Positions 4,995-58,059 of a stretch of 62,777 bases of DNA are shown in pieces. The position numbers and the translations under genes were made by a program. The stretch lies in IMG/VR virus record IMGVR_UViG_3300013137_002215. The stretch is one strand, 5' to 3'. Positions within the stretch are counted from its first letter, which is position 1, and each line of letters starts with the position of its first letter. Below the pieces are notes generated by a model. That model saw only the letters and a list, made by a program, of their open reading frames with translations, was not told where the DNA came from and did not search any database. Source of the DNA: an uncultured virus (IMG/VR IMGVR_UViG_3300013137_002215) (lineage: Duplodnaviria; Heunggongvirae; Uroviricota; Caudoviricetes).

Positions 4995-5503
4995 ATTCTA
5001 GTGTAATGCGGTTCCAAAGAAGAATCTAATACGCACTTAAAAGAAGAAAGCAACTTTAAACATTGAGAATAACAATCTCGTCTAGAATCATCTAATATTA
5101 AAATACCATTATTTTTAACTTTTTTTATAGAATATTCGACACATGATGGCCTTGCTCTTCCATCTATCATAATAATATCAAAATACTCGTCGTTAAATTC
5201 CATAATTTTTTTTACATATTTTTCAAAACTCTTCATTTTTCTGTCCGAATAAAACTTTCTGTTAATTGTTTTATCAGCTTCAATAAAAAAAACTTCTGCG
5301 TTTTTGACATTTTTGTTTAAAATCTCATTTGATACTTTTTCATGCCAAAACCTGTCATGTTCGATGCTAACAATTGACTTACATCTCTGAGCTAACCACA
5401 AAGTAGAATAGCCGCTTCCGTATTCAAAAACACAATGATTTTTGACAATAAAGTTATCTAAATAAGAAATAGCATCTTCGCTTATAAATGGAGATATTTC
5501 CAT
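4982..5503 (-). CDS. SAM-dependent methyltransferase
   Basis: FEYGSGYSTLW, IEHD, IDGRAR, LDDS. Confidence 0.8.
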   Translation of the reverse strand: MEISPFISEDAISYLDNFIVKNHCVFEYGSGYSTLWLAQRCKSIVSIEHDRFWHEKVSNEILNKNVKNAEVFFIEADKTINRKFYSDRKMKSFEKYVKKIMEFNDEYFDIIMIDGRARPSCVEYSIKKVKNNGILILDDSRRDCYSQCLKLLSSFKCVLDSSLEPHYTRIWQK

Positions 5504-7023: not shown

Positions 7024-7769
7024 AGTATTTTTTTGAAAAATAATTTCCAATCATTCAAACTAACCCTGCCATCTTTACTATATTTTTCATTCGTCTTAGG
7101 TATCCCTCTTCCCAAATGCGCGAATATAATTTCTTTTTTATCACTTACACATAGGCATATTTTTTTACTTCCAAATGGACTTACTATTTCGTTTATAAGA
7201 GAGGGGTCGTTTATAGTATTACGAAAACAATAATGTTCGATTTTATTATCTTGCACATATTTAGTCAAAGAATCACCAACATCCATAACCTGTGTCGTTC
7301 CTACATACTTGGGGTACATGTCTAGGTCTTTAATCAAACTATATTCAGTTAAAAGACCACAAACATGTATCGCCCCAATTCTATCTTTATGCATGTCTTT
7401 TTGAACGCCAATTAGTTTATATCCGGCATCATATTTGCCAATAAAATCATACATAAACGATAAACTTAAAACAGCAACATCGCAATGAACTACAAAAACC
7501 AAACCAGAATCTATGTTTTTTAAACCAATATGTATGGCTTCCGCATTAGCTTCAGAACCCACCTTACGAGTATTGTTATTAATCCATAGTATATTATCGC
7601 TTATTTCCATAATATCATTCTTATAACTACTGTCCAATGAGTTTTCAACCACTATAAAATTAATATTAAAATCATTACAACAATACTTAACAAAACTTTT
7701 TATACAAATAGTTGTCAGTATTTTAGAATGAAAAGATGGTATAATTACGGTTATTTTATGCATTTTCAA
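7020..7769 (-). CDS. glycosyltransferase family 2-like
   Basis: ITVIIPSF, VVENS, VHCDV. Confidence 0.7.
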   Translation of the reverse strand: MKMHKITVIIPSFHSKILTTICIKSFVKYCCNDFNINFIVVENSLDSSYKNDIMEISDNILWINNNTRKVGSEANAEAIHIGLKNIDSGLVFVVHCDVAVLSLSFMYDFIGKYDAGYKLIGVQKDMHKDRIGAIHVCGLLTEYSLIKDLDMYPKYVGTTQVMDVGDSLTKYVQDNKIEHYCFRNTINDPSLINEIVSPFGSKKICLCVSDKKEIIFAHLGRGIPKTNEKYSKDGRVSLNDWKLFFKKIL

Positions 7770-8670
7770 AAAACCTATCCCAAATAGAAATTACACTTTG
7801 AGGCAAATATCTGTCAATAATAGATTTATAATTATAGTCTATTTTGTCTATGTTGCTTAAAACTTTATTTATAAAGTCATTTATATCTAAACAAATACAA
7901 TCTGGATGTAATATCTCTGAGGCAACTCCGACATTAGTAGATAGTATTTTAATTTTCCTATAAGACGCTTCCAAAATAGACTGTGGACCACCTTCATATC
8001 TAGAAGTAACAAAATACCAATCTAAACAGTCATATAAAGACGTTATATCCTTATAATTTTGAAGATACACGTATGCTATATTTTTCTCTTTTAATTTAGA
8101 AATAACATAGTTTCTAGCATATCCAGCTAAAACAACTTTGATTTTAATCTTTTTATTTAATTTATCTAATAAATCAATCAGCACATCTGGTCCCTTTGAC
8201 ATTTTGGGTGAATCACCATTGCGTCCATTGCCATCTTTTTGAAAGGAGCCAACAAGTAACTCGTTATCATCCAGTAACTTACACTTAAGATCCTTAATCC
8301 TATCTTCATCTCTTTCTTTCATATTTTTTGACAATATCCAATAAGACAAGCGATGAATCGGAATCTTAATATATTTAGCGGCTATTTTTTCAACCTGTTT
8401 ATTACAAACAATACATCCATTGGCCTTATTAAAAATATCAAAATTATATTCTTTAATATTGCCTTCATTAATATGGTGTATGTTAATAAAAGACTTACAT
8501 GTTTTGGGAATTCTGCCAAATACTGATGGAAATTCAAATAGATTTAAACACCACAAAGTACTAGGATTATCTTTCAATTTAACTATATTATGACAAGTAT
8601 ATTTCTTAAAATCGTTTTCAATATCGCTTAGAATCCAATTTGATTGTTCGTTTTGAATGGACAAGTTCAT
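7756..8670 (-). CDS. glycosyltransferase family 4
   Basis: KGPD, SRYEGGPQSILEA, STNVG. Confidence 0.8.
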   Translation of the reverse strand: MNLSIQNEQSNWILSDIENDFKKYTCHNIVKLKDNPSTLWCLNLFEFPSVFGRIPKTCKSFINIHHINEGNIKEYNFDIFNKANGCIVCNKQVEKIAAKYIKIPIHRLSYWILSKNMKERDEDRIKDLKCKLLDDNELLVGSFQKDGNGRNGDSPKMSKGPDVLIDLLDKLNKKIKIKVVLAGYARNYVISKLKEKNIAYVYLQNYKDITSLYDCLDWYFVTSRYEGGPQSILEASYRKIKILSTNVGVASEILHPDCICLDINDFINKVLSNIDKIDYNYKSIIDRYLPQSVISIWDRFFENA

Positions 8671-39470: not shown

Positions 39471-40727
39471 TTATAAACGAGACAATTCTGGACATGCCAA
39501 AATCGTCTGATTTTCTGGTTTGTAACAGGAACCGTATTTTCCTGTAAGAAATCGCTGAACTATATTCAAGGCTGCATTTATGTCAGCATTGTCAGTATAA
39601 CCACAAGCCTGACACTTGAACACTTCACCATTACGATTTCTACTATCGGCTAAGTTACAGACTGGACATGTTATACTAGTATTATAAGGCAAAACTGTAC
39701 GAAAGGAAGTACGACTTTCTTCACACAGTTGTTCCAGCCTCATTAACCAGTAAGCATAATTCCAGCTACCGATAGAAGAACGAATATTTTTACTCAATCG
39801 TCCTTTGAGTTTTGAATTTGAGTTCAAATTACTAAGTTTCTCTACTACAACCAAATCCTTATCTTTAAGAACTTCTTTTGCTACTTCATTAATTCTTTGT
39901 TTAATAGTATTAATTGCTCTTTTCTTTCCCTTTGACCCTTTTTGACAGCGTTTAGATTTTTCAATTAGTTGTTTGATATCTGTTCCAAATTGTTCTTTTT
40001 CAGATGTTGAAGCTAAAGCATTAATTCCAGTATCAATTCCAATAATGTTTTTGACTTCTTTTTTAGGTCCAGTTTCTTTTTCAAAACCAAATTGAACATA
40101 ATCTTTAGTGATTATATAAGAATTAAGTCTTTGTGCTTTTTGTTGTAACTCTCTGTAGTGTTTATGGAATTTAATAGGAATATCAAGTGTTATCTTATTA
40201 CCAATAGAGGCTAAATGCAACCAAGCGTCAAATTCTTTAGTTTGTCTTTTAGGTTTCTGTAACTCTCCAATAGTACAAGAAACCGACATCTTTGTTCCTT
40301 TATGTTTTGGTTTATGTGGCTGAATCATTAATATCTTAGATTTGTTAGCTTTGAGTTTTTTATGCCAATTATTAATTTTTCTTCTGTTCTCTTTTGTATT
40401 TGGTTGGGTAATCTTAATCTTCTTTTCTAAAGCATCAATGGTATTTTGTATTTGTTCTTTGTTCCATTCAAAAACATTCTTAACTGAACTAACCATATCT
40501 ATTGCTTCTCTTGCTGCTACCTTTCTTAAACGAGCAGACAACCAAGTATCTTTAGGAATATCCACAATAGGTTTAAGCAATTGAGTCTTATCTACTTTCT
40601 TATCCCAAAAATAATCAATGAAGATATTAACTATTTTACCATACTCTTGAAGTATAGTTTGTAGTTCTATCTTCTTTTTATTTGTAGCGAATTTAACACT
40701 ACATTTACTTGACCTGATTATTTTCAT
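39471..40727 (-). CDS. tnpB: TnpB RNA-guided endonuclease
   Basis: RuvC GIDTG / VVEKL / NADINAA; Zn finger CPVC..CQAC. Confidence 0.92.
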   Translation of the reverse strand: MKIIRSSKCSVKFATNKKKIELQTILQEYGKIVNIFIDYFWDKKVDKTQLLKPIVDIPKDTWLSARLRKVAAREAIDMVSSVKNVFEWNKEQIQNTIDALEKKIKITQPNTKENRRKINNWHKKLKANKSKILMIQPHKPKHKGTKMSVSCTIGELQKPKRQTKEFDAWLHLASIGNKITLDIPIKFHKHYRELQQKAQRLNSYIITKDYVQFGFEKETGPKKEVKNIIGIDTGINALASTSEKEQFGTDIKQLIEKSKRCQKGSKGKKRAINTIKQRINEVAKEVLKDKDLVVVEKLSNLNSNSKLKGRLSKNIRSSIGSWNYAYWLMRLEQLCEESRTSFRTVLPYNTSITCPVCNLADSRNRNGEVFKCQACGYTDNADINAALNIVQRFLTGKYGSCYKPENQTILACPELSRL

Positions 40728-43263: not shown

Positions 43264-43379
43264 TAGTGGGGTAAATAGGAATCAAACCTACACTCGTTGG
43301 TTGCCTTTTTATTTGCTGAAAGTAACCTTTAAACAGATTCATTTTTATACCCACTGTGCTTCCGTTACACCACCGCCCC
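43264..43379 (-). ncRNA. tRNA-like RNA with a 49-nt anticodon loop
   Basis: acceptor GGGGCGG/TTACCCC, D arm GTGT/GCAC, T arm GTAGG TTTGATT CCTAT; loop 43301-43349. Confidence 0.6.
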
Positions 43380-43402
43380 TATATTTTCAAAGAACGATCA
43401 CT

Positions 43403-43441
43403 AAAAACAAAAAACCCTTCCAGATTATCTCTGAAAGGGTT
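43403..43441 (-). terminator. attenuator terminator of tRNA operon 1
   Basis: AACCCTTTCAGA-GATAA-TCTGGAAGGGTT + TTTTGTTTTT. Confidence 0.85.
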
Positions 43442-43464
43442 AGCGATCCAAATTTTGGGTTAGA

Positions 43465-43533
43465 TTAGATCGTACCCCCTTCCAGATGTTCTTCTGGAAT
43501 CTCAATCATGGGGATATGAATTCTAATCGTCAT
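43465..43533 (-). CDS. leader peptide MTIRIHIPMIEIPEEHLEGGTI
   Basis: SD AAGGA and ATGA overlap with upstream ORF; Ile/His/Pro/Glu-rich; contains antiterminator TCTGGAAGGG. Confidence 0.8.
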   Translation of the reverse strand: MTIRIHIPMIEIPEEHLEGGTI

Positions 43534-52374: not shown

Positions 52375-53733
52375 AAACGTGAGCAGAAACCCCGACATCT
52401 TTAGTGTCGGGGAGGTAAGCGAATTACTTAACCCGCTTCCTTCCACTTCTCCTTTGCTATTTATTATACCTAAAATATTTTAAGATTCAAGCAGGATTTT
52501 TCTTAAAAATATAGAATAACATAATTATGAACATATTAACATATAATATTAAATTAGAGTTTCAGAATCAAAAAGACAAAGATTCTCTGATTGATTTACT
52601 ATTAGAACATCAAAAAGTATGGAACTATATGTCAGAATATGTTTTTAAATCCAAAAAGGTAGATAAAAAGTTAATTCACGATAAAAACTATAAGAAATGC
52701 AGAAAACTGTTCCCAAATTGTCCTTCCCAAGTAGTTATCAGAGCAAAAGATTCGGTCTACGCTACCTATAGAACAATTCAGTCTAACAAACATAAATTAG
52801 AAGAATCCGCTAAACAAGAAAATCTATCAATAAGATTAGATAAGAGAATTTATACTTTTCTTCCAGATAATAAAATTAAACTAACAACCACTGGGAAAAG
52901 AATAACCTGCTCCTATACTCCTTATGACAAATTCAGAGATATGTTCTCTAAATATTCTGTTTGTGACCCATTACTTTTTGTTAGAAATAATGAAGTTTGG
53001 CTTTCGGTATCATTTGAAGTTTCAACCCCTACCCTTATAGAAGGTAGTTGTATCGGAGTGGATTTAGGCATAAAAAGATTAGCAACTACCTCTGAGGGAT
53101 TAACAATTACAGATAAGAAGTTCCTTAAAGAAAAAAGACAAATAAGACATCTAAAGAGTATATTAAAATCAAAAAGCAAAACTACTTTTTCCCGTTCTGC
53201 CCAAAGAAAACTAAAAAAACTAAAAAGAAAAGAGCATAACAAAAACAAGAACCAATCACATCTTATTGCTAACAAAATATTAGAAACCAAATCTAATGTT
53301 ATTGTTATGGAAGATTTGACTAAAATAAAGTCAGAAAATAAGGGAAAGAGATTTAATAATAGACAATCTCAAGTTCCCTATTTTGAGTTAAGAAAAATAC
53401 TAACCTACAAGGCACCATTATTAGGCAAAATAGTGGTAACGGTTGACCCTGCCTATACTTCTAAGAACGATTATAGAGGCATAGAAAAAGGCAAAAGACA
53501 GGGATGTAGGTATTACACAAGCGATAACAATGTTTTTGATGCTGATTGGAATGCGGCTATAAACATTGCTAATCGTTACGCCATGAGAAAGAAAGTTAAG
53601 GGCGTAGAACTCCCTGTTTCGTTTAATATACCTATTGATGGTAGATTAAACCTAATAGGCAAGCCATATCAACTGGCTAATTGTGAGATAAGGTCTTGCA
53701 AACCCAATGATCTTCAGTCATTAGGTAGTTGAT
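52375..53733 (+). mobile_element. IS200/IS605-type tnpB-only element
   Basis: left hairpin CCCCGACA-TCTTTAG-TGTCGGGG (52390-52412); right hairpin ACCCAATGA..TCATTAGGT followed by AGTTGAT; left boundary approximate. Confidence 0.8.
52527..53732 (+). CDS. tnpB: TnpB/Cas12f-like nuclease lacking the C-terminal Zn finger
   Basis: GVDLG, VMEDL, DPAYTS, DADWNAAINIA; no CxxC pairs. Confidence 0.88.
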   Translation: MNILTYNIKLEFQNQKDKDSLIDLLLEHQKVWNYMSEYVFKSKKVDKKLIHDKNYKKCRKLFPNCPSQVVIRAKDSVYATYRTIQSNKHKLEESAKQENLSIRLDKRIYTFLPDNKIKLTTTGKRITCSYTPYDKFRDMFSKYSVCDPLLFVRNNEVWLSVSFEVSTPTLIEGSCIGVDLGIKRLATTSEGLTITDKKFLKEKRQIRHLKSILKSKSKTTFSRSAQRKLKKLKRKEHNKNKNQSHLIANKILETKSNVIVMEDLTKIKSENKGKRFNNRQSQVPYFELRKILTYKAPLLGKIVVTVDPAYTSKNDYRGIEKGKRQGCRYYTSDNNVFDADWNAAINIANRYAMRKKVKGVELPVSFNIPIDGRLNLIGKPYQLANCEIRSCKPNDLQSLGS

Positions 53734-54478: not shown

Positions 54479-54654
54479 TTATTGTACAAGTCTTTCCCAC
54501 AATTTTCTATAATAACATTTTTAATTGTTTCTGTTAATTGATCTTCAGGAACAGAATCAACATCTATCTCGTCGCAAAAATTAGAAGTTATAACAACATC
54601 ATACTCTTCTTTTACTTTTTCTGCTATTTTTCTTGCTAATATTTCTGCTTTCAT
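54475..54654 (-). CDS. small hypothetical protein
   Basis: SD AGGAG; MKAEILARKI... Confidence 0.55.
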   Translation of the reverse strand: MKAEILARKIAEKVKEEYDVVITSNFCDEIDVDSVPEDQLTETIKNVIIENCGKDLYNN

Positions 54655-54670
54655 GTTTCTCCTTTTAAAT

Positions 54671-54877
54671 CTACCATATTTCTACATCTGTTAAATCTAA
54701 TTTTTCTTTCGTGACACCGTGAATAACCTCAACAATACATCCTAAACCGGTTGGAGTGAAAGAATAAGTAAGTTGACCGCCGATTGCTCCATAATAATCA
54801 GTACCAGTTTTCTTATTCTGTTTTTTATTCCACTCTTTAATTTTTTTCATGTCTTCATCTGATATGTTGAATTGCAT
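54671..54877 (-). CDS. small phage protein
   Basis: SD AGGAG; GAIGGQLTYSFTPTGLG..LDLTD. Confidence 0.7.
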   Translation of the reverse strand: MQFNISDEDMKKIKEWNKKQNKKTGTDYYGAIGGQLTYSFTPTGLGCIVEVIHGVTKEKLDLTDVEIW

Positions 54878-54895
54878 ATATATCTCCTGTTTAAA

Positions 54896-54993
54896 GGCTG
54901 GAGAGACAGGCTTCGCTCCTGCACACACACCCGATTAGAGGTGTCATGATCGGCTTAACAGGCCGACCCCTTGCTAGTTAGGGCAACTCTCCA
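54896..54993 (-). tRNA. tRNA-Asn(GUU), atypical (27-nt variable region, T-loop AGCGAAG)
   Basis: TGGAGAG/CTCTCCA, G73; TCGGC-CT GTT AA-GCCGA. Confidence 0.75.
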
Positions 54994-55000
54994 ATAAATT

Positions 55001-55071
55001 TTGTCTCGTCGGGACTTGAACCCAAACTAGGACCTCCAAAGGGTCCGGTGCTGCCATTACACTACGAGACA
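55001..55071 (-). tRNA. tRNA-Gln(UUG)
   Basis: GGACC-CT TTG GA-GGTCC; U1-A72. Confidence 0.9.
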
Positions 55072-55538
55072 TTATTTTTCTTTTTTAATATCTCCCTTAA
55101 TCTCATCAATCTCCCACAAAATTCGCTTCTTGTCAATATTGTTTCTTTAGAATTTGATCTACCAATATTGTGTGTTAAAACCGCATCTCCACTTGCTAAT
55201 AAAGCCCTCCTAAAAGAGTCAGATTGTTCCATTAATGCCATATAAGCCCTATCTAACAATATTTGGTATTCATCGCTCTGCCTATCAATTTCTTTATCTT
55301 CCCAATATAATGTTTGTGTTTTCCACCATTTCTTTTCTTTACCTGATTTTTTAGCACTATATCCAACAAGTTTGCATATCTCTTTTTGCATTTCTGGATT
55401 TTTAAATTTTAAACTCTGCAAAAATCCCTCCATACTATTAATAGGAATTTCATCAAAAACAAAAGGGTGTGGTGCAAAATTTGATAATGCACTTGACGGA
55501 TAACCATGTTTTGATCCTATATCCATTTTTACCTCCAT
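55062..55538 (-). CDS. T4 Gp30.3-like NADAR family protein
   Basis: YPSSALSNFAPHPF, SMEGFLQSLKF, QTLYW, LTHNIG, TILT..EF. Confidence 0.8.
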   Translation of the reverse strand: MEVKMDIGSKHGYPSSALSNFAPHPFVFDEIPINSMEGFLQSLKFKNPEMQKEICKLVGYSAKKSGKEKKWWKTQTLYWEDKEIDRQSDEYQILLDRAYMALMEQSDSFRRALLASGDAVLTHNIGRSNSKETILTRSEFCGRLMRLREILKKKNNVS

Positions 55539-55553
55539 ACTTATTAATAATAT

Positions 55554-55597
55554 AAATAAAAAGCCCCCTTCAAGATATTTTATCCTAAAGAGGGCAA
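55554..55597 (-). terminator. attenuator terminator of tRNA operon 2
   Basis: GCCCTCTTTAGGATA...TATCTTGAAGGGGGC + TTTTTATTT. Confidence 0.8.
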
Positions 55598-55613
55598 GAT
55601 AGTAGAATAACTA

Positions 55614-55667
55614 TCAGTGCCCTTTCAGGCATTGATTATTTTGGTTATTCTGTTGATTCATTTTCAT
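55614..55667 (-). CDS. leader peptide MKMNQQNNQNNQCLKGH
   Basis: nine consecutive Asn/Gln codons; antiterminator CCTGAAAGGGCA. Confidence 0.85.
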   Translation of the reverse strand: MKMNQQNNQNNQCLKGH

Positions 55668-55673
55668 ACTATT

Positions 55674-55701
55674 AATATACACAAATTTTATTGTTTGTCA
55701 A
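55674..55701 (-). promoter_or_regulatory. sigma70-type promoter of tRNA operon 2
   Basis: TTGACA-16-TATATT with TG; ATG 6 nt downstream. Confidence 0.7.
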
Positions 55702-55711
55702 CTTATTATTG

Positions 55712-56515
55712 CTAATTTTTATTTTTTCCTTTATTTCTCTTAAACTCATCGTGTCTTTTTTCTATCCATTCCAATAATTCTTTATCCTTAATATTTATTT
55801 CATTTAACATATCATATAAAGTTGATTTGTAAGGATAATCACACATTATTTTCATGGCGTCTATTTTTTTAGAAGACTCGATAAAATAAATACAAAAAAG
55901 AACCCAATTACGAACCATCTTATAATTCTTAGTGCCTTCTGCAACACGAATTTCAACAGTCTTTCTCTTTTTGTTTTTAATATAATCAACAATACTGAAA
56001 CTTATAGCACTATGATGATCTTCTGTTGAATTTAGTGCATCTTTAAAGAAACTTGCGGTATTCTTTTTACTTCCTTTGCTTTTTATGCTTCTTTCACAAT
56101 AAAAACAATTTCTTCTACGTAATGGAAATAAAGAGAATATCACAGGTTCATATTTAAGCCATAATGCCAATACTTTTTCTTTATCTATACCGGCAATATC
56201 TAAATGAACATGCAAAGAATCCTTATCTGTTATTTTTATATCATTTCTATCTATTTCTTTAATAACGTCGCATATTTTATCCATTTGTTTTAAAGTAGAA
56301 ATTGGCGTACATAATTCGCTTTCTGTTGTAGCATCGGTTTTTAAGTTCCATTTGATATTATTAATTGATTGATAGGCTTCTTCTTTACAATATAAACTAT
56401 TATTACCAAAGTATTTATGTATTATTTTAGATATAATTGGCTTAATTTGATCATATCTCGTAGAAAACTCAAATTCACAACCAAACTTCCTAGAAAAGAA
56501 TATTTTGGGGAACAT
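55712..56515 (-). CDS. putative amidoligase (COOH-NH2 ligase type 2)
   Basis: FGCEFEF, ELCTP, SLHVHL, TVEIR. Confidence 0.8.
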   Translation of the reverse strand: MFPKIFFSRKFGCEFEFSTRYDQIKPIISKIIHKYFGNNSLYCKEEAYQSINNIKWNLKTDATTESELCTPISTLKQMDKICDVIKEIDRNDIKITDKDSLHVHLDIAGIDKEKVLALWLKYEPVIFSLFPLRRRNCFYCERSIKSKGSKKNTASFFKDALNSTEDHHSAISFSIVDYIKNKKRKTVEIRVAEGTKNYKMVRNWVLFCIYFIESSKKIDAMKIMCDYPYKSTLYDMLNEINIKDKELLEWIEKRHDEFKRNKGKNKN

Positions 56516-56677
56516 ACATATTAATTCAAAGAAATTAAAAAATATCCTGTGGTTATAAAGAATATCAACAAAAACAATAATCTAATAAGAATTATGTTCT
56601 TTTGTTTTAATATATTTTTATTAATCTTCATTGAATTTATATATATTTCAAAAAACTGTCAATTATTCCTTGATAAG

Positions 56678-56751
56678 TGGCAGATAAGGGACTTGAACCC
56701 ATACTTTCACGGATTATGATTCCGTAGCACTAGCCATTATGCTAATCTGCC
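56678..56751 (-). tRNA. tRNA-Met(CAU) elongator (or Ile2)
   Basis: ACGGA-AT CAT AA-TCCGT. Confidence 0.85.
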
Positions 56752-56756
56752 TTAAT

Positions 56757-56827
56757 CAGGAGCACTCCGACTTGAACGGAGACAAAAAATTTTGGAGATT
56801 TTTATGCTACCATTACATCATGCCCCT
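56757..56827 (-). tRNA. tRNA-Trp(CCA)
   Basis: AAAAT-CT CCA AA-ATTTT; G73. Confidence 0.88.
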
Positions 56828-56831
56828 AAGT

Positions 56832-56926
56832 TGGTGCGGGTAACAGGACTCGAACCTGCATTAGCCATAAGGCATCAGTTTCCACTTATCCTTATCTACT
56901 TAGAAGGTAGATGGAACTATACCCGC
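56832..56926 (-). tRNA. tRNA-Arg(UCU)-like RNA with rearranged D region
   Basis: GCGGGTA/TACCCGC-ACCA, canonical T arm, TCTAC-CT TCT AA-GTAGA nested within a GTTCCA/TGGAAAC stem. Confidence 0.65.
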
Positions 56927-56931
56927 AAAAA

Positions 56932-57007
56932 TGGTGCCCCTAGAAAGATTTCAACTTTCAACTATTTCTTAGGACGAAATTATTATGTGCAATTTCACTA
57001 TAGGGGC
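56932..57007 (-). tRNA. tRNA-Arg(CCU)
   Basis: ATTTC-GT CCT AA-GAAAT; encoded CCA. Confidence 0.85.
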
Positions 57008-57010
57008 AAT

Positions 57011-57086
57011 TGGCGGAGCCAGCGAAAGGTCGAATTCGCTATTTATCCGTGACAGGGATATGTTTTTCCACTTAAACTATGGCTCC
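57011..57086 (-). tRNA. tRNA-Asp(GUC)
   Basis: TATCC-CT GTC AC-GGATA; GCCA end. Confidence 0.88.
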
Positions 57087-57092
57087 AAAAAC

Positions 57093-57170
57093 TGGTAGCG
57101 GGTAAAAGGTATCGCGCCTTTTGTAGAGTAGCTTATGAGACTACCGCTGGTCTCTCCAGTCTAACCCGCA
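57093..57170 (-). tRNA. initiator-like tRNA-Met(CAU)
   Basis: U1-U72 mismatch; GTAGT-CT CAT AA-GCTAC; encoded CCA. Confidence 0.8.
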
Positions 57171-57178
57171 AAAATATC

Positions 57179-57253
57179 TGGTATTCTCTGTAGGATTTCA
57201 ACCTACAACTTCAAGTTCGTAGCCTGATATGATATGCATTTCACCAAGAGAAT
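57179..57253 (-). tRNA. tRNA-Arg(ACG)
   Basis: TCAGG-CT ACG AA-CTTGA; encoded CCA. Confidence 0.87.
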
Positions 57254-57261
57254 AAAAATCT

Positions 57262-57360
57262 TGCCGTAATGATCGCTTCGGTGCAATTTTAGAGATTTGC
57301 AAAACTCTATCTTTATTTCCGATACTGATTCCGGCTCATTATTCGAGCGATCTATCAGAA
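57262..57360 (-). ncRNA. candidate structured RNA
   Basis: GATCGCT/AGCGATC closing stem enclosing CCGG/TCGG and TAGAG/CTCTA hairpins. Confidence 0.4.
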
Positions 57361-57387
57361 ATCACTAATATTAATTTATCAAAGAAC

Positions 57388-57424
57388 AAAAAAAAGCCCG
57401 TATCACTTGTCTGATACGGGCTTT
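57388..57424 (-). terminator. attenuator terminator of tRNA operon 3
   Basis: AAAGCCCGTATCA-GACAAG-TGATACGGGCTTT + T tract. Confidence 0.9.
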
Positions 57425-57444
57425 CCTTTTCTATGTCCCATTAG

Positions 57445-57516
57445 CTAGACAAAATGGGACAAAAGAATGCCCGTATAAGGCATCCTATCCCAACGATCTT
57501 GTCTTAGCGATATCAT
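57445..57516 (-). CDS. leader peptide MISLRQDRWDRMPYTGILLSHFV
   Basis: SD GAGGTG; AGA CAA GAT CGT TGG GAT AGG ATG; antiterminator ATACGGGC. Confidence 0.82.
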   Translation of the reverse strand: MISLRQDRWDRMPYTGILLSHFV

Positions 57517-57545
57517 TCTTAATACACCTCTATATCTTTGTTCTA

Positions 57546-57574
57546 AGATTATATAACTTTATCCTGCCTGTCAA
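57546..57574 (-). promoter_or_regulatory. sigma70-type promoter of tRNA operon 3
   Basis: TTGACA-17-TAATCT (or 15-TATAAT). Confidence 0.7.
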
Positions 57575-57582
57575 CATCTTTT

Positions 57583-58059
57583 TCACAAAATATCTTCTTT
57601 AACAATTGCAACTGCTTTAAGTGCTCTTTCTAATAATATATCATGGTCTTTTTCAATTATTATATCTTTCATAACAATACAATTTTCAAAATCAACAGGA
57701 ATCATTTTTATATTAAATACCTCTAATGTTTTTTCATTTATTTCATTAGCCACAGAAACAAATCCAAAATCAACCACATTTTTACTAATAGATCTTTCGG
57801 GTTCGCTTCTAAAATCAACAGGTATAATCTTATCCTTTGAAATATTTATACACGTTTGTTCTTTAATTGTTCTAAGTGCCGCAAATTGTATTGTTTCTAT
57901 ACCCGCTTTCACATAATCAGTTGGAAATCTAAATTTATTACCAATATCTTTATTACCAATATCTTTTAATAGCACCATATTCTCATAAATAATCACAGTA
58001 GAAACGGTAATAGCAAACATTGGATATTTGTACTGATAATATGTAGTGAAATCGTACAT
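57583..58059 (-). CDS. NUDIX-like protein (degenerate Nudix box)
   Basis: YKYPMFAITV, FP..V..GIET..AALRTIKEQT, DH. Confidence 0.6.
   Translation of the reverse strand: MYDFTTYYQYKYPMFAITVSTVIIYENMVLLKDIGNKDIGNKFRFPTDYVKAGIETIQFAALRTIKEQTCINISKDKIIPVDFRSEPERSISKNVVDFGFVSVANEINEKTLEVFNIKMIPVDFENCIVMKDIIIEKDHDILLERALKAVAIVKEDIL

Follow-up and report, generated by a model that had tools for sequence, protein, structure and literature searches.

A leader-like element upstream of a phage tRNA cluster

The 62,777-nucleotide stretch of DNA analyzed here (IMG/VR record IMGVR_UViG_3300013137_002215, Caudoviricetes; hereinafter the window) is AT-rich and lies inside a contig of 124,777 bp, the source of which looks like a large uncultured phage. 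ARAGORN detects 11 transfer RNA (tRNA) genes in the window, all on the minus strand and grouped in three clusters. Cluster 3 is preceded by a compact element, denoted attenuator 3, that is probably a ribosome-mediated (leader-peptide) transcription attenuator gating this phage tRNA cluster. The order of its parts on the minus strand, between 57574 and 57388, is promoter, Shine-Dalgarno sequence, 23-codon open reading frame (ORF), protector hairpin, antiterminator and 18-bp terminator:

57548..57574, minus strand: promoter read from the sequence, with -35 TTGACA (57574-57569), a 15-nt spacer and -10 TATAAT (57553-57548)
57525..57530, minus strand: Shine-Dalgarno sequence GAGGTG, 8 nt ahead of the ATG, read from the sequence
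57445..57516, minus strand: leader ORF MISLRQDRWDRMPYTGILLSHFV, 23 codons plus TAG (stop at 57447-57445)
57481..57504, minus strand: regulatory codons 5-12, AGA CAA GAT CGT TGG GAT AGG ATG
57456..57491, minus strand: protector (1:2) hairpin in minimum-free-energy folds, GGGAUAGGAUGCC pairing with GGCAUUCUUUUGUCCC; also flagged as terminator-like
57412..57480, minus strand: antiterminator, the 5' strand of which, including AUACGGGC (57476-57469), pairs with the terminator 5' arm, including GCCCGUAU (57421-57414)
57434..57461, minus strand: stop-spanning hairpin UGUCCCAUU/AAUGGGACA, with TAG (57447-57445) in the loop; the apical helix of the antiterminator
57388..57429, minus strand: intrinsic terminator, 18-bp stem with 6 G-C pairs, 6-nt loop, T8

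Thus, a short ORF with translation signals is located between a promoter and a terminator, and this intrinsic terminator lies upstream of the putatively regulated genes, both features being characteristic of leader-peptide attenuators. The promoter is missing from the output of an automatic scan because that scan accepted only spacers of 16-18 nt. The fold of the 161-nt leader (-59 kcal/mol) compares with -33.0 +/- 3.7 kcal/mol for 200 shuffled sequences (z = -7.08), none of which is as stable, and the attenuator 3 region contains 6 terminator-like sites versus 1.8 +/- 1.3 in shuffles. The entire window has about 6 strong minus-strand terminators, three of which belong to the three attenuators described here, the remainder following long genes. 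An earlier reading of this DNA from the letters and ORFs alone (the sequence-only reading) had listed codons 5-12 as above, and they are indeed found at 57504-57481. It had also proposed that ATACGGGC (57476-57469) pairs with the terminator arm GCCCGTAT (57421-57414) and that a hairpin of TGTCCCATT (57461-57453) and AATGGGACA (57442-57434) spans the stop; the former two segments are complementary, and the latter two flank the TAG.

Correspondence between leader codons and the downstream tRNAs

The genes after terminator 3 follow in the order element X (described below), Arg(ACG), CAU-like, Asp, Arg(CCU), UCU-like, Trp and Met. ARAGORN calls Arg(ACG), Asp(GTC), Arg(CCT), Trp(CCA) and Met(CAT) in this region:

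57179..57253, minus strand: tRNA-Arg(ACG), reads CGT; Rfam 52.8 bits
57093..57169, minus strand: CAU tRNA-like cloverleaf with anticodon loop CUCAUAA and atypical D and T loops; minimum-free-energy fold only, no ARAGORN call and no Rfam tRNA match
57011..57086, minus strand: tRNA-Asp(GTC), reads GAT; Rfam 37.1 bits
56932..57007, minus strand: tRNA-Arg(CCT), reads AGG; Rfam 43.7 bits
56835..56927, minus strand: UCU tRNA-like gene with anticodon loop CUUCUAA, would read AGA; Rfam tRNA-Sec 25.2 bits with a cut-off of 47, no ARAGORN call
56756..56828, minus strand: tRNA-Trp(CCA), reads TGG; Rfam 54.4 bits
56677..56751, minus strand: tRNA-Met(CAT), reads ATG; Rfam 56.2 bits

The codons readable by cluster 3 account for 12.8% of the codon usage in the window (59 long ORFs, 16,973 codons) and match 7 of the 8 leader codons 5-12 (binomial tail 4e-6), so that the regulatory codons correspond to the products of the regulated genes, as they do in leader-peptide attenuators. 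Only 1 of 20,000 random 23-codon leaders equals the best-window score of leader 3, and leader 3 ranks first for the cluster 3 codon set among the 1,223 small ORFs of 10-45 codons on both strands of the 62.8-kb window. At 3.8% Arg usage, the chance of finding three Arg codons in a run of eight is ~0.003 (simple arithmetic), and therefore the Arg run in leader 3 is a real enrichment. The Asp, Trp and CAU tRNAs that the sequence-only reading had placed downstream are found there (Asp(GTC), Trp(CCA) and Met(CAT) by ARAGORN, the second CAU gene by folding only). Its one-to-one assignment of the three Arg codons (AGA to the UCU-like gene, CGT to ACG and AGG to CCU) holds as well, with the caveat that the UCU-like gene is atypical: the tRNA-Sec alignment gives a 6-bp stem, almost no D arm, a 27-nt extra arm and a canonical anticodon loop.

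Predicted geometry of the switch

In folds of the growing transcript free of ribosomes, the protector forms before the terminator and would sequester the 5' strand of the antiterminator as long as no ribosome is stalled. The protector helix GGGAUAGGAUGCC/GGCAUUCUUUUGUCCC, extended by pairing of AGACAAG with UUUUGUCU, reaches -33 kcal/mol, and UUUUGU directly after this hairpin is a possible pause site. The translating ribosome was represented by masked folds, in which the A-site codon and 12 nt were covered and only the RNA made before the terminator 3' arm was folded. In these co-transcriptional folds, the antiterminator helix encloses the stop-spanning hairpin and forms 11 pairs (-31.6 kcal/mol). 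The 11 pairs are retained with the A site at any of codons 4-8 and decrease to 10, 8 and 5 at codons 9, 10 and 11; with the A site at codon 12 onward, the antiterminator is lost, leaving 2-6 residual pairs with energies from -15 kcal/mol (codon 12) to -1.3 kcal/mol (stop). Thus, in silico and depending on the assumed footprint, stalling on the regulatory codons leaves the antiterminator free to form, and arrival of the ribosome at the stop prevents this. The folds also contain the two mutual exclusions typical of such devices, namely that of the terminator by the antiterminator and that of the antiterminator by the protector.

Two further probable attenuators in the window

The other two tRNA clusters are preceded by elements of the same kind:

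43405..43532, minus strand: attenuator 1, leader MTIRIHIPMIEIPEEHLEGGTI (43532-43464) and terminator at about 43439-43407; precedes tRNA-His, Ile, Glu and Pro
55555..55701, minus strand: attenuator 2, promoter TTGACA-16-TATATT, leader MKMNQQNNQNNQCLKGH (55666-55613) and terminator 55595-55563
55062-55538, minus strand: T4 gp30.3-like gene (PF08010, 183 bits), between terminator 2 and tRNA-Gln/Asn, under the Asn/Gln leader

In leader 1, 12 of 16 codons match His, Ile, Glu or Pro (tail 2e-8). Attenuator 2 precedes the gp30.3-like gene and then tRNA-Gln(TTG) and tRNA-Asn(GTT), and its leader matches Gln or Asn in 9 of 9 codons (tail 6e-10). All 6 cross-pairings of a leader with another cluster give p > 0.1, that is, the match is specific to the leader's own cluster. 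Similarly to leader 3, leaders 1 and 2 head the ranking of the 1,223 small ORFs, each for its own cluster, and the observed score was reached by none of 20,000 random leaders in either case. The geometry of the masked folds is the same in attenuators 1 and 2 and in the copy of attenuator 2 from the related metagenome locus L001 (see below).

Leader 2 has no Shine-Dalgarno sequence, and its ATG is located about 7 nt past the -10 box both in the window (TATATT, 55666-55701) and in L001 (GATAAT, 8044-8081, plus strand); this conserved geometry suggests that the leader 2 mRNA is leaderless. The tRNA-Asn(GTT) gene of cluster 2 (54896-54993, minus strand) is 98 nt in length and has a long extra arm. 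The first element after terminator 1 (43265-43385, minus strand) resembles a tRNA in its T arm, GTAGGTTTGATTCCTAT, and in its acceptor-like ends and is not called as one; an attempt to fold it as a cloverleaf failed. This element may account for the unmatched codons of leader 1.

The related locus L001 as a natural comparison

Clusters 3 and 2 are separated by a gene that served as the query for relatives:

55712-56515, minus strand: Amidoligase_2 (PF12224) gene

A scan of metagenomes with an amidoligase profile yielded 53 loci, 16 of which have tRNAs within the fetched flanks. The closest of these, L001 (52% amino acid identity in the amidoligase), is syntenic with the window: a promoter (TTGACA-17-GATAAT), a leader, a terminator, element X, tRNAs for CAU, Asp and Trp only, the amidoligase gene and a second unit before Asn and Gln tRNAs. 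Rfam confirms the Asp, Trp, Asn and Gln tRNAs of L001, and there is no space for additional ones.

The first leader of L001, MMLQDIMDWDMMTFGFSCPISFI, has 23 codons, the same as in the window, and shares with it ..TGGGAT..GATG.. At positions 5, 8 and 11, which are occupied by Arg codons in the window, L001 has Asp, Asp and Met (AGG and ATG differ by one base), so that the Arg run is confined to the locus that has Arg tRNAs. The sequence-only reading had called for such a comparison between relatives with different tRNA sets, and here the leader differs along with the tRNA set; the outcome that would have spoken against it, an unchanged leader despite different tRNA content, is not seen in this pair. 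Each of the two L001 leaders ranks first of 271 small ORFs for the cluster that it precedes (tails 2.2e-7 and 5.8e-6). The second leader, MKINQQNNSQSSEGHGGFL, retains the Asn/Gln run in the absence of the gp30.3-like gene at that place; therefore, the leader of attenuator 2 is tied to the tRNAs rather than to the gp30.3-like protein. Taken together, these sequence comparisons support co-evolution of the leader with the tRNA set at the amino acid level.

The RNA architecture is conserved as well. In L001, the antiterminator consists of CGGGUUUUCUUG paired with UAAGAAAACCCG (12 bp), the same two-storey design with a different sequence, and the stop hairpin UCCAAUU/AAUUGGA surrounds the TAG, with one C-G pair replaced by A-U. 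The helices of the window and L001 were compared as separate folds because MAFFT misaligns hairpin arms with different loop lengths. In masked folds of the L001 leader, an A site on any of codons 4-9 leaves 9 pairs, codon 10 leaves 8, and no pairs persist at codon 11 or beyond, which defines a sensitive window of codons 4-10.

Some of the L001 tRNAs are atypical: the Asn and Met genes are 85-87 nt long (5259-5345 and 8204-8288). Non-canonical D and T loops characterize the CAU genes of these phages. A tandem GTCGTTTAT repeat (about 5 copies, 5085-5130, plus strand), located between the terminator and element X of L001, is absent from the window.

Wider occurrence

A sequence-unrelated candidate was detected in locus L028 (6140-6226), which together with L029 represents a GC-richer phage group. 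It consists of a promoter and the leader MLTFTAQPTSPETQPWYIYQEPRNCGLG, within which GGCCUCGGG is complementary to the terminator arm. The sensitive window of this candidate extends to codon 21 and closes with the six codons UGG UAU AUU UAU CAG GAA, and the tRNAs that follow are Glu, Tyr, Glu, Tyr, Ile, Arg and Gln. It is the sole candidate in the L022-L031 group. Sub-threshold Y RNA-like matches are located between the tRNAs of L028 (6524-6586 and 7317-7391, plus strand; YrlA with 36.6 bits against 69 and YrlB with 33.9 against 97), and ARAGORN reports a 'tRNA-???' just upstream of the YrlB-like match (7317-7391).

No close relatives of the window were found among GenBank phages or in IMG/VR. 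A search of IMG/VR for leader 3 and a pattern search for element X gave no matches, and the amidoligase as a single query recovered no relatives. The pattern of leader 2 hits 8 loci, none of which carries tRNAs, and these hits were dismissed as chance matches inside genes. The amidoligase profile recovers 7 loci from IMG/VR, with tRNAs in none of the 6 scanned (L056 was left out). None of the 4 loci found through relatives of ThyX has tRNAs next to it, and two records with 2-3 tRNAs lack attenuators. The presence of tRNAs in 16 of the 53 metagenome loci (L001-L053) may point to a repeated association of the amidoligase with the tRNA regions of phages.

Proposed mechanism

The observed anatomy, codon statistics, conservation and covariation with the tRNA set are best compatible with attenuation of the tRNA cluster through translation of the leader. 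From these features, we infer that the leader is translated, that transcription either terminates or reads through, and that a physiological signal decides the outcome, in the following manner. Transcription would begin from the promoter at 57574, with a ribosome following the polymerase and translating the 23-codon leader. With prompt decoding of AGA, (CAA), GAT, CGT, TGG, GAT and AGG, the ribosome would arrive at the stop codon, cover the 5' strand of the antiterminator and melt the stop-spanning hairpin, whereupon the 18-bp terminator would form, transcription would end at T8 and the tRNA genes would not be made. When charged tRNA is scarce, the ribosome would stall on codons 5-11 and disrupt the protector, so that AUACGGGC could pair with the emerging terminator arm, and the polymerase would read through into Arg(ACG), CAU-like, Asp, Arg(CCU), UCU-like, Trp and Met. 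The newly made tRNAs would then relieve the stall, which amounts to negative feedback on decoding capacity. In a transcript without a ribosome, the protector hairpin would form first, and the terminator would win. Candidate signals include a poor host tRNA pool, decay of host tRNAs during infection and tRNA-cleaving host defences.

Several observations weigh against this interpretation. The 15-nt spacer of the promoter is suboptimal. Codon 12 (ATG) falls just beyond the modelled sensitive window, and the CAA (Gln) codon has no tRNA in cluster 3, the tRNA-Gln(TTG) gene being located about 1.6 kb downstream, behind attenuator 2. The UCU-like and CAU-like genes, 2 of the 7 tRNAs of the cluster, are atypical and may be non-functional. 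In equilibrium folds, the terminator always wins, and therefore the switch would have to be kinetic; the trp attenuator is likewise kinetic, with the terminator favoured at equilibrium. L001 is the only orthologous relative found. In the L022-L031 group, most tRNAs directly follow protein genes, and in the related 231-kb phage G001 (21 tRNAs by ARAGORN, 23 by Rfam), where protein genes alternate with the tRNAs, the scan detected 5 terminators, and no codon-matched leader precedes any of them. The device is not general.

The same hardware might sense amino acid starvation or translational stress in the form of uncharged tRNA, with the tRNA genes being merely stress-induced. Such a sensor cannot tell a missing tRNA from an uncharged one, and this is how the known attenuators work; we nevertheless consider this scenario unlikely because extra tRNA gives no relief from amino acid starvation, and the specificity of each leader for its own cluster and the covariation with the tRNA set make sense only with feedback on the sensed codons. 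That the arrangement is a coincidence, i.e., an ordinary terminator or insulator next to an untranslated ORF with a chance codon match, is very improbable. Translation of the leader is indeed inferred only, the promoter spacer is 15 nt, and the window offers as many as 1,223 small ORFs to choose from, but rank 1 of 1,223 was obtained three times and rank 1 of 271 twice. Furthermore, the frame, the 23-codon length and the stop-in-hairpin geometry are conserved between the window and L001 while the helix sequences have changed; a Shine-Dalgarno sequence is present; and a terminator placed downstream of its own promoter would be pointless if it were a plain terminator.

A translation-independent RNA switch, in which the leader binds tRNA directly in the manner of a T-box or is bound by a protein, has a precedent in the T-box elements, which likewise link tRNA status to termination. 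The T-box covariance model, however, has no match at E <= 1 in 54500-57700 or at E <= 10 in 56825-57370, there is no match to other riboswitches at E <= 1, the matched triplets are in frame within an ORF that has its own start codon and Shine-Dalgarno sequence, and one short RNA would have to read several tRNAs. In our estimate, this possibility is almost negligible. A conventional amino acid operon attenuator was rejected because seven tRNA or tRNA-like genes follow and the unit contains no biosynthetic gene.

Isoacceptors or amino acids

The sequence-only reading had gone further and suggested that the sensor reads individual tRNA species rather than amino acids. The part of this claim that stands is that the leader codons mirror the tRNA genes behind them; selection for the three Arg isoacceptors does not follow, given that three Arg codons would cover all classes by chance with a probability of ~0.15, which is not significant (Arg usage: AGA 0.556, AGG 0.175, CGT/C/A 0.258; simple arithmetic). 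That AGA, CGT and AGG were each selected as a probe of one Arg tRNA species is a reasonable possibility to which we lean slightly less than to its opposite. The one-to-one correspondence of the three codons with the three tRNAs speaks for it, as does the fact that AGG (0.67% usage) and CGT (0.61%) are minor codons in this phage, and stalling is codon-specific in principle. By inspection, AGG forms a G-U pair in the protector helix where AGA would form A-U, and hence the RNA structure does not force AGG. On the other hand, AGA pairs with UCU near the stop in the ribosome-free fold, so that structure may influence this codon, and the UCU-like tRNA is atypical. The other systems are of limited help: L001 lacks all Arg tRNAs together and accordingly covaries only at the amino acid level; L028 carries both Glu(CTC) and Glu(TTC), yet its leader has GAA twice and GAG never; and leaders 1 and 2 are uninformative, with one tRNA per amino acid each.

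A broader and rather doubtful extension is that the three leaders jointly make up a codon-resolved monitor of host decoding capacity that switches on exactly those replacement tRNAs that run short. Every in-frame codon would then serve to probe a single tRNA species, with the three Arg isoacceptors probed separately. If so, phage tRNA clusters would be inducible counter-measures under feedback, not constitutive codon-usage supplements, with the shortage caused by host tRNA decay during infection or by anticodon-nuclease cleavage.

Neighbouring elements and genomic setting

A conserved element is located between terminator 3 and the first tRNA of the cluster:

57268..57355, minus strand: element X, 88 nt, conserved in L001 (5135-5236, plus strand)

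The blocks CGCTCGAATAAT, TATCGGAAA, TTGCA and TGCACCGAAGCG of element X are identical in the window and L001, though the flanking tRNAs have diverged. Its closing helix and inner hairpin covary between the two loci; the z-score of the fold is only -1.0 to -1.9. Element X has no Rfam or ARAGORN call, and a cloverleaf reading, by eye and by folding, failed.

The sequence of the window occurs in DNA runs of lake-water metagenomes only, and the contigs from 3 such runs contain identical pieces with no variants. There are few PHROG matches in the window; these include an exonuclease V/Dda-like helicase, TnpB-like transposases and the T4 gp30.3-like protein. The two TnpB-like transposase ORFs (phrog_506, E = 7e-24 and 5e-38) are found near the tRNA regions, at 39471-40727 (minus strand) and 52527-53732 (plus strand).

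Implications

The candidate explanations usually considered for phage tRNAs are codon-usage compensation, replacement of host tRNAs after decay and escape from tRNA-cleaving defences. Under the attenuation mechanism, tRNA supply would follow the speed of ribosomes on particular codons, which bears on the question why phages carry tRNAs at all, and each of these hypotheses predicts a different inducing condition for read-through. The pair formed by the window and L001, in which the leader appears to be rewritten as the tRNA set changes, provides evolutionary evidence for function. Such elements would yield compact natural sensors of single-codon decoding speed, and they suggest a simple rule for annotation: look for a short ORF that precedes a tRNA cluster and is composed of the codons which that cluster reads.

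Relation to known systems

Leader-peptide attenuation is a textbook mechanism, known for genes of amino acid synthesis and for one synthetase; here, the same hardware would control tRNA genes. Full-text searches of a collection with few subscription journals revealed no description of leader-peptide attenuation acting on tRNA genes. The classical enterobacterial attenuators are trpL, hisL, pheL and leuL, along with the multivalent thrL and ilvL. Attenuator 3 resembles the trpL/hisL/pheL/leuL type in having a promoter, a short ORF, a run of regulatory codons, the protector, antiterminator and terminator, a U-run and, as predicted, a kinetic race between ribosome and polymerase. It resembles thrL and ilvL in being multivalent, with codons for several amino acids. 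The abstract of PMC1183508 contains a general description of leader-peptide attenuation. A weak architectural likeness to a catalogued attenuator is seen in the comparison with the Rfam family Thr_leader (RF00506), to which the window scores 28.5 bits (E = 0.016) and L028 36 bits; membership was rejected given that both are below the gathering score of 55 and that the codons and the regulated genes differ.

T-box riboswitches bind tRNA directly, without translation, and switch between terminator and antiterminator in a codon-specific manner. They sense tRNA status, as proposed here; in the phage, the codons are instead in the frame of a putatively translated ORF. Leaderless short ORFs are described in bioRxiv 10.1101/834739 for mycobacterial polycysteine attenuators, where the leaderless start is as in attenuator 2, in contrast to attenuator 3 with its Shine-Dalgarno sequence; the mycobacterial ORFs control cysteine-related operons by a different mechanism.

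Attenuators of amino acid operons control biosynthetic enzymes, whereas the phage unit would control tRNAs, so that the loop closes on tRNA supply. Leaders of amino acid operons repeat one codon, whereas leader 3 mixes codons for 5 amino acids and includes 3 synonymous Arg codons. The pheM leader attenuates E. coli pheST, which encodes phenylalanyl-tRNA synthetase, and responds to the charging of tRNA-Phe. This leader may be regarded as the nearest functional counterpart: there, as here, attenuation acts on a gene of the translation apparatus, the output of pheST being a synthetase with a single amino acid specificity. Unlike the enterobacterial attenuators, the elements described here are phage-borne and occur three per genome, each matched to its own tRNA cluster.

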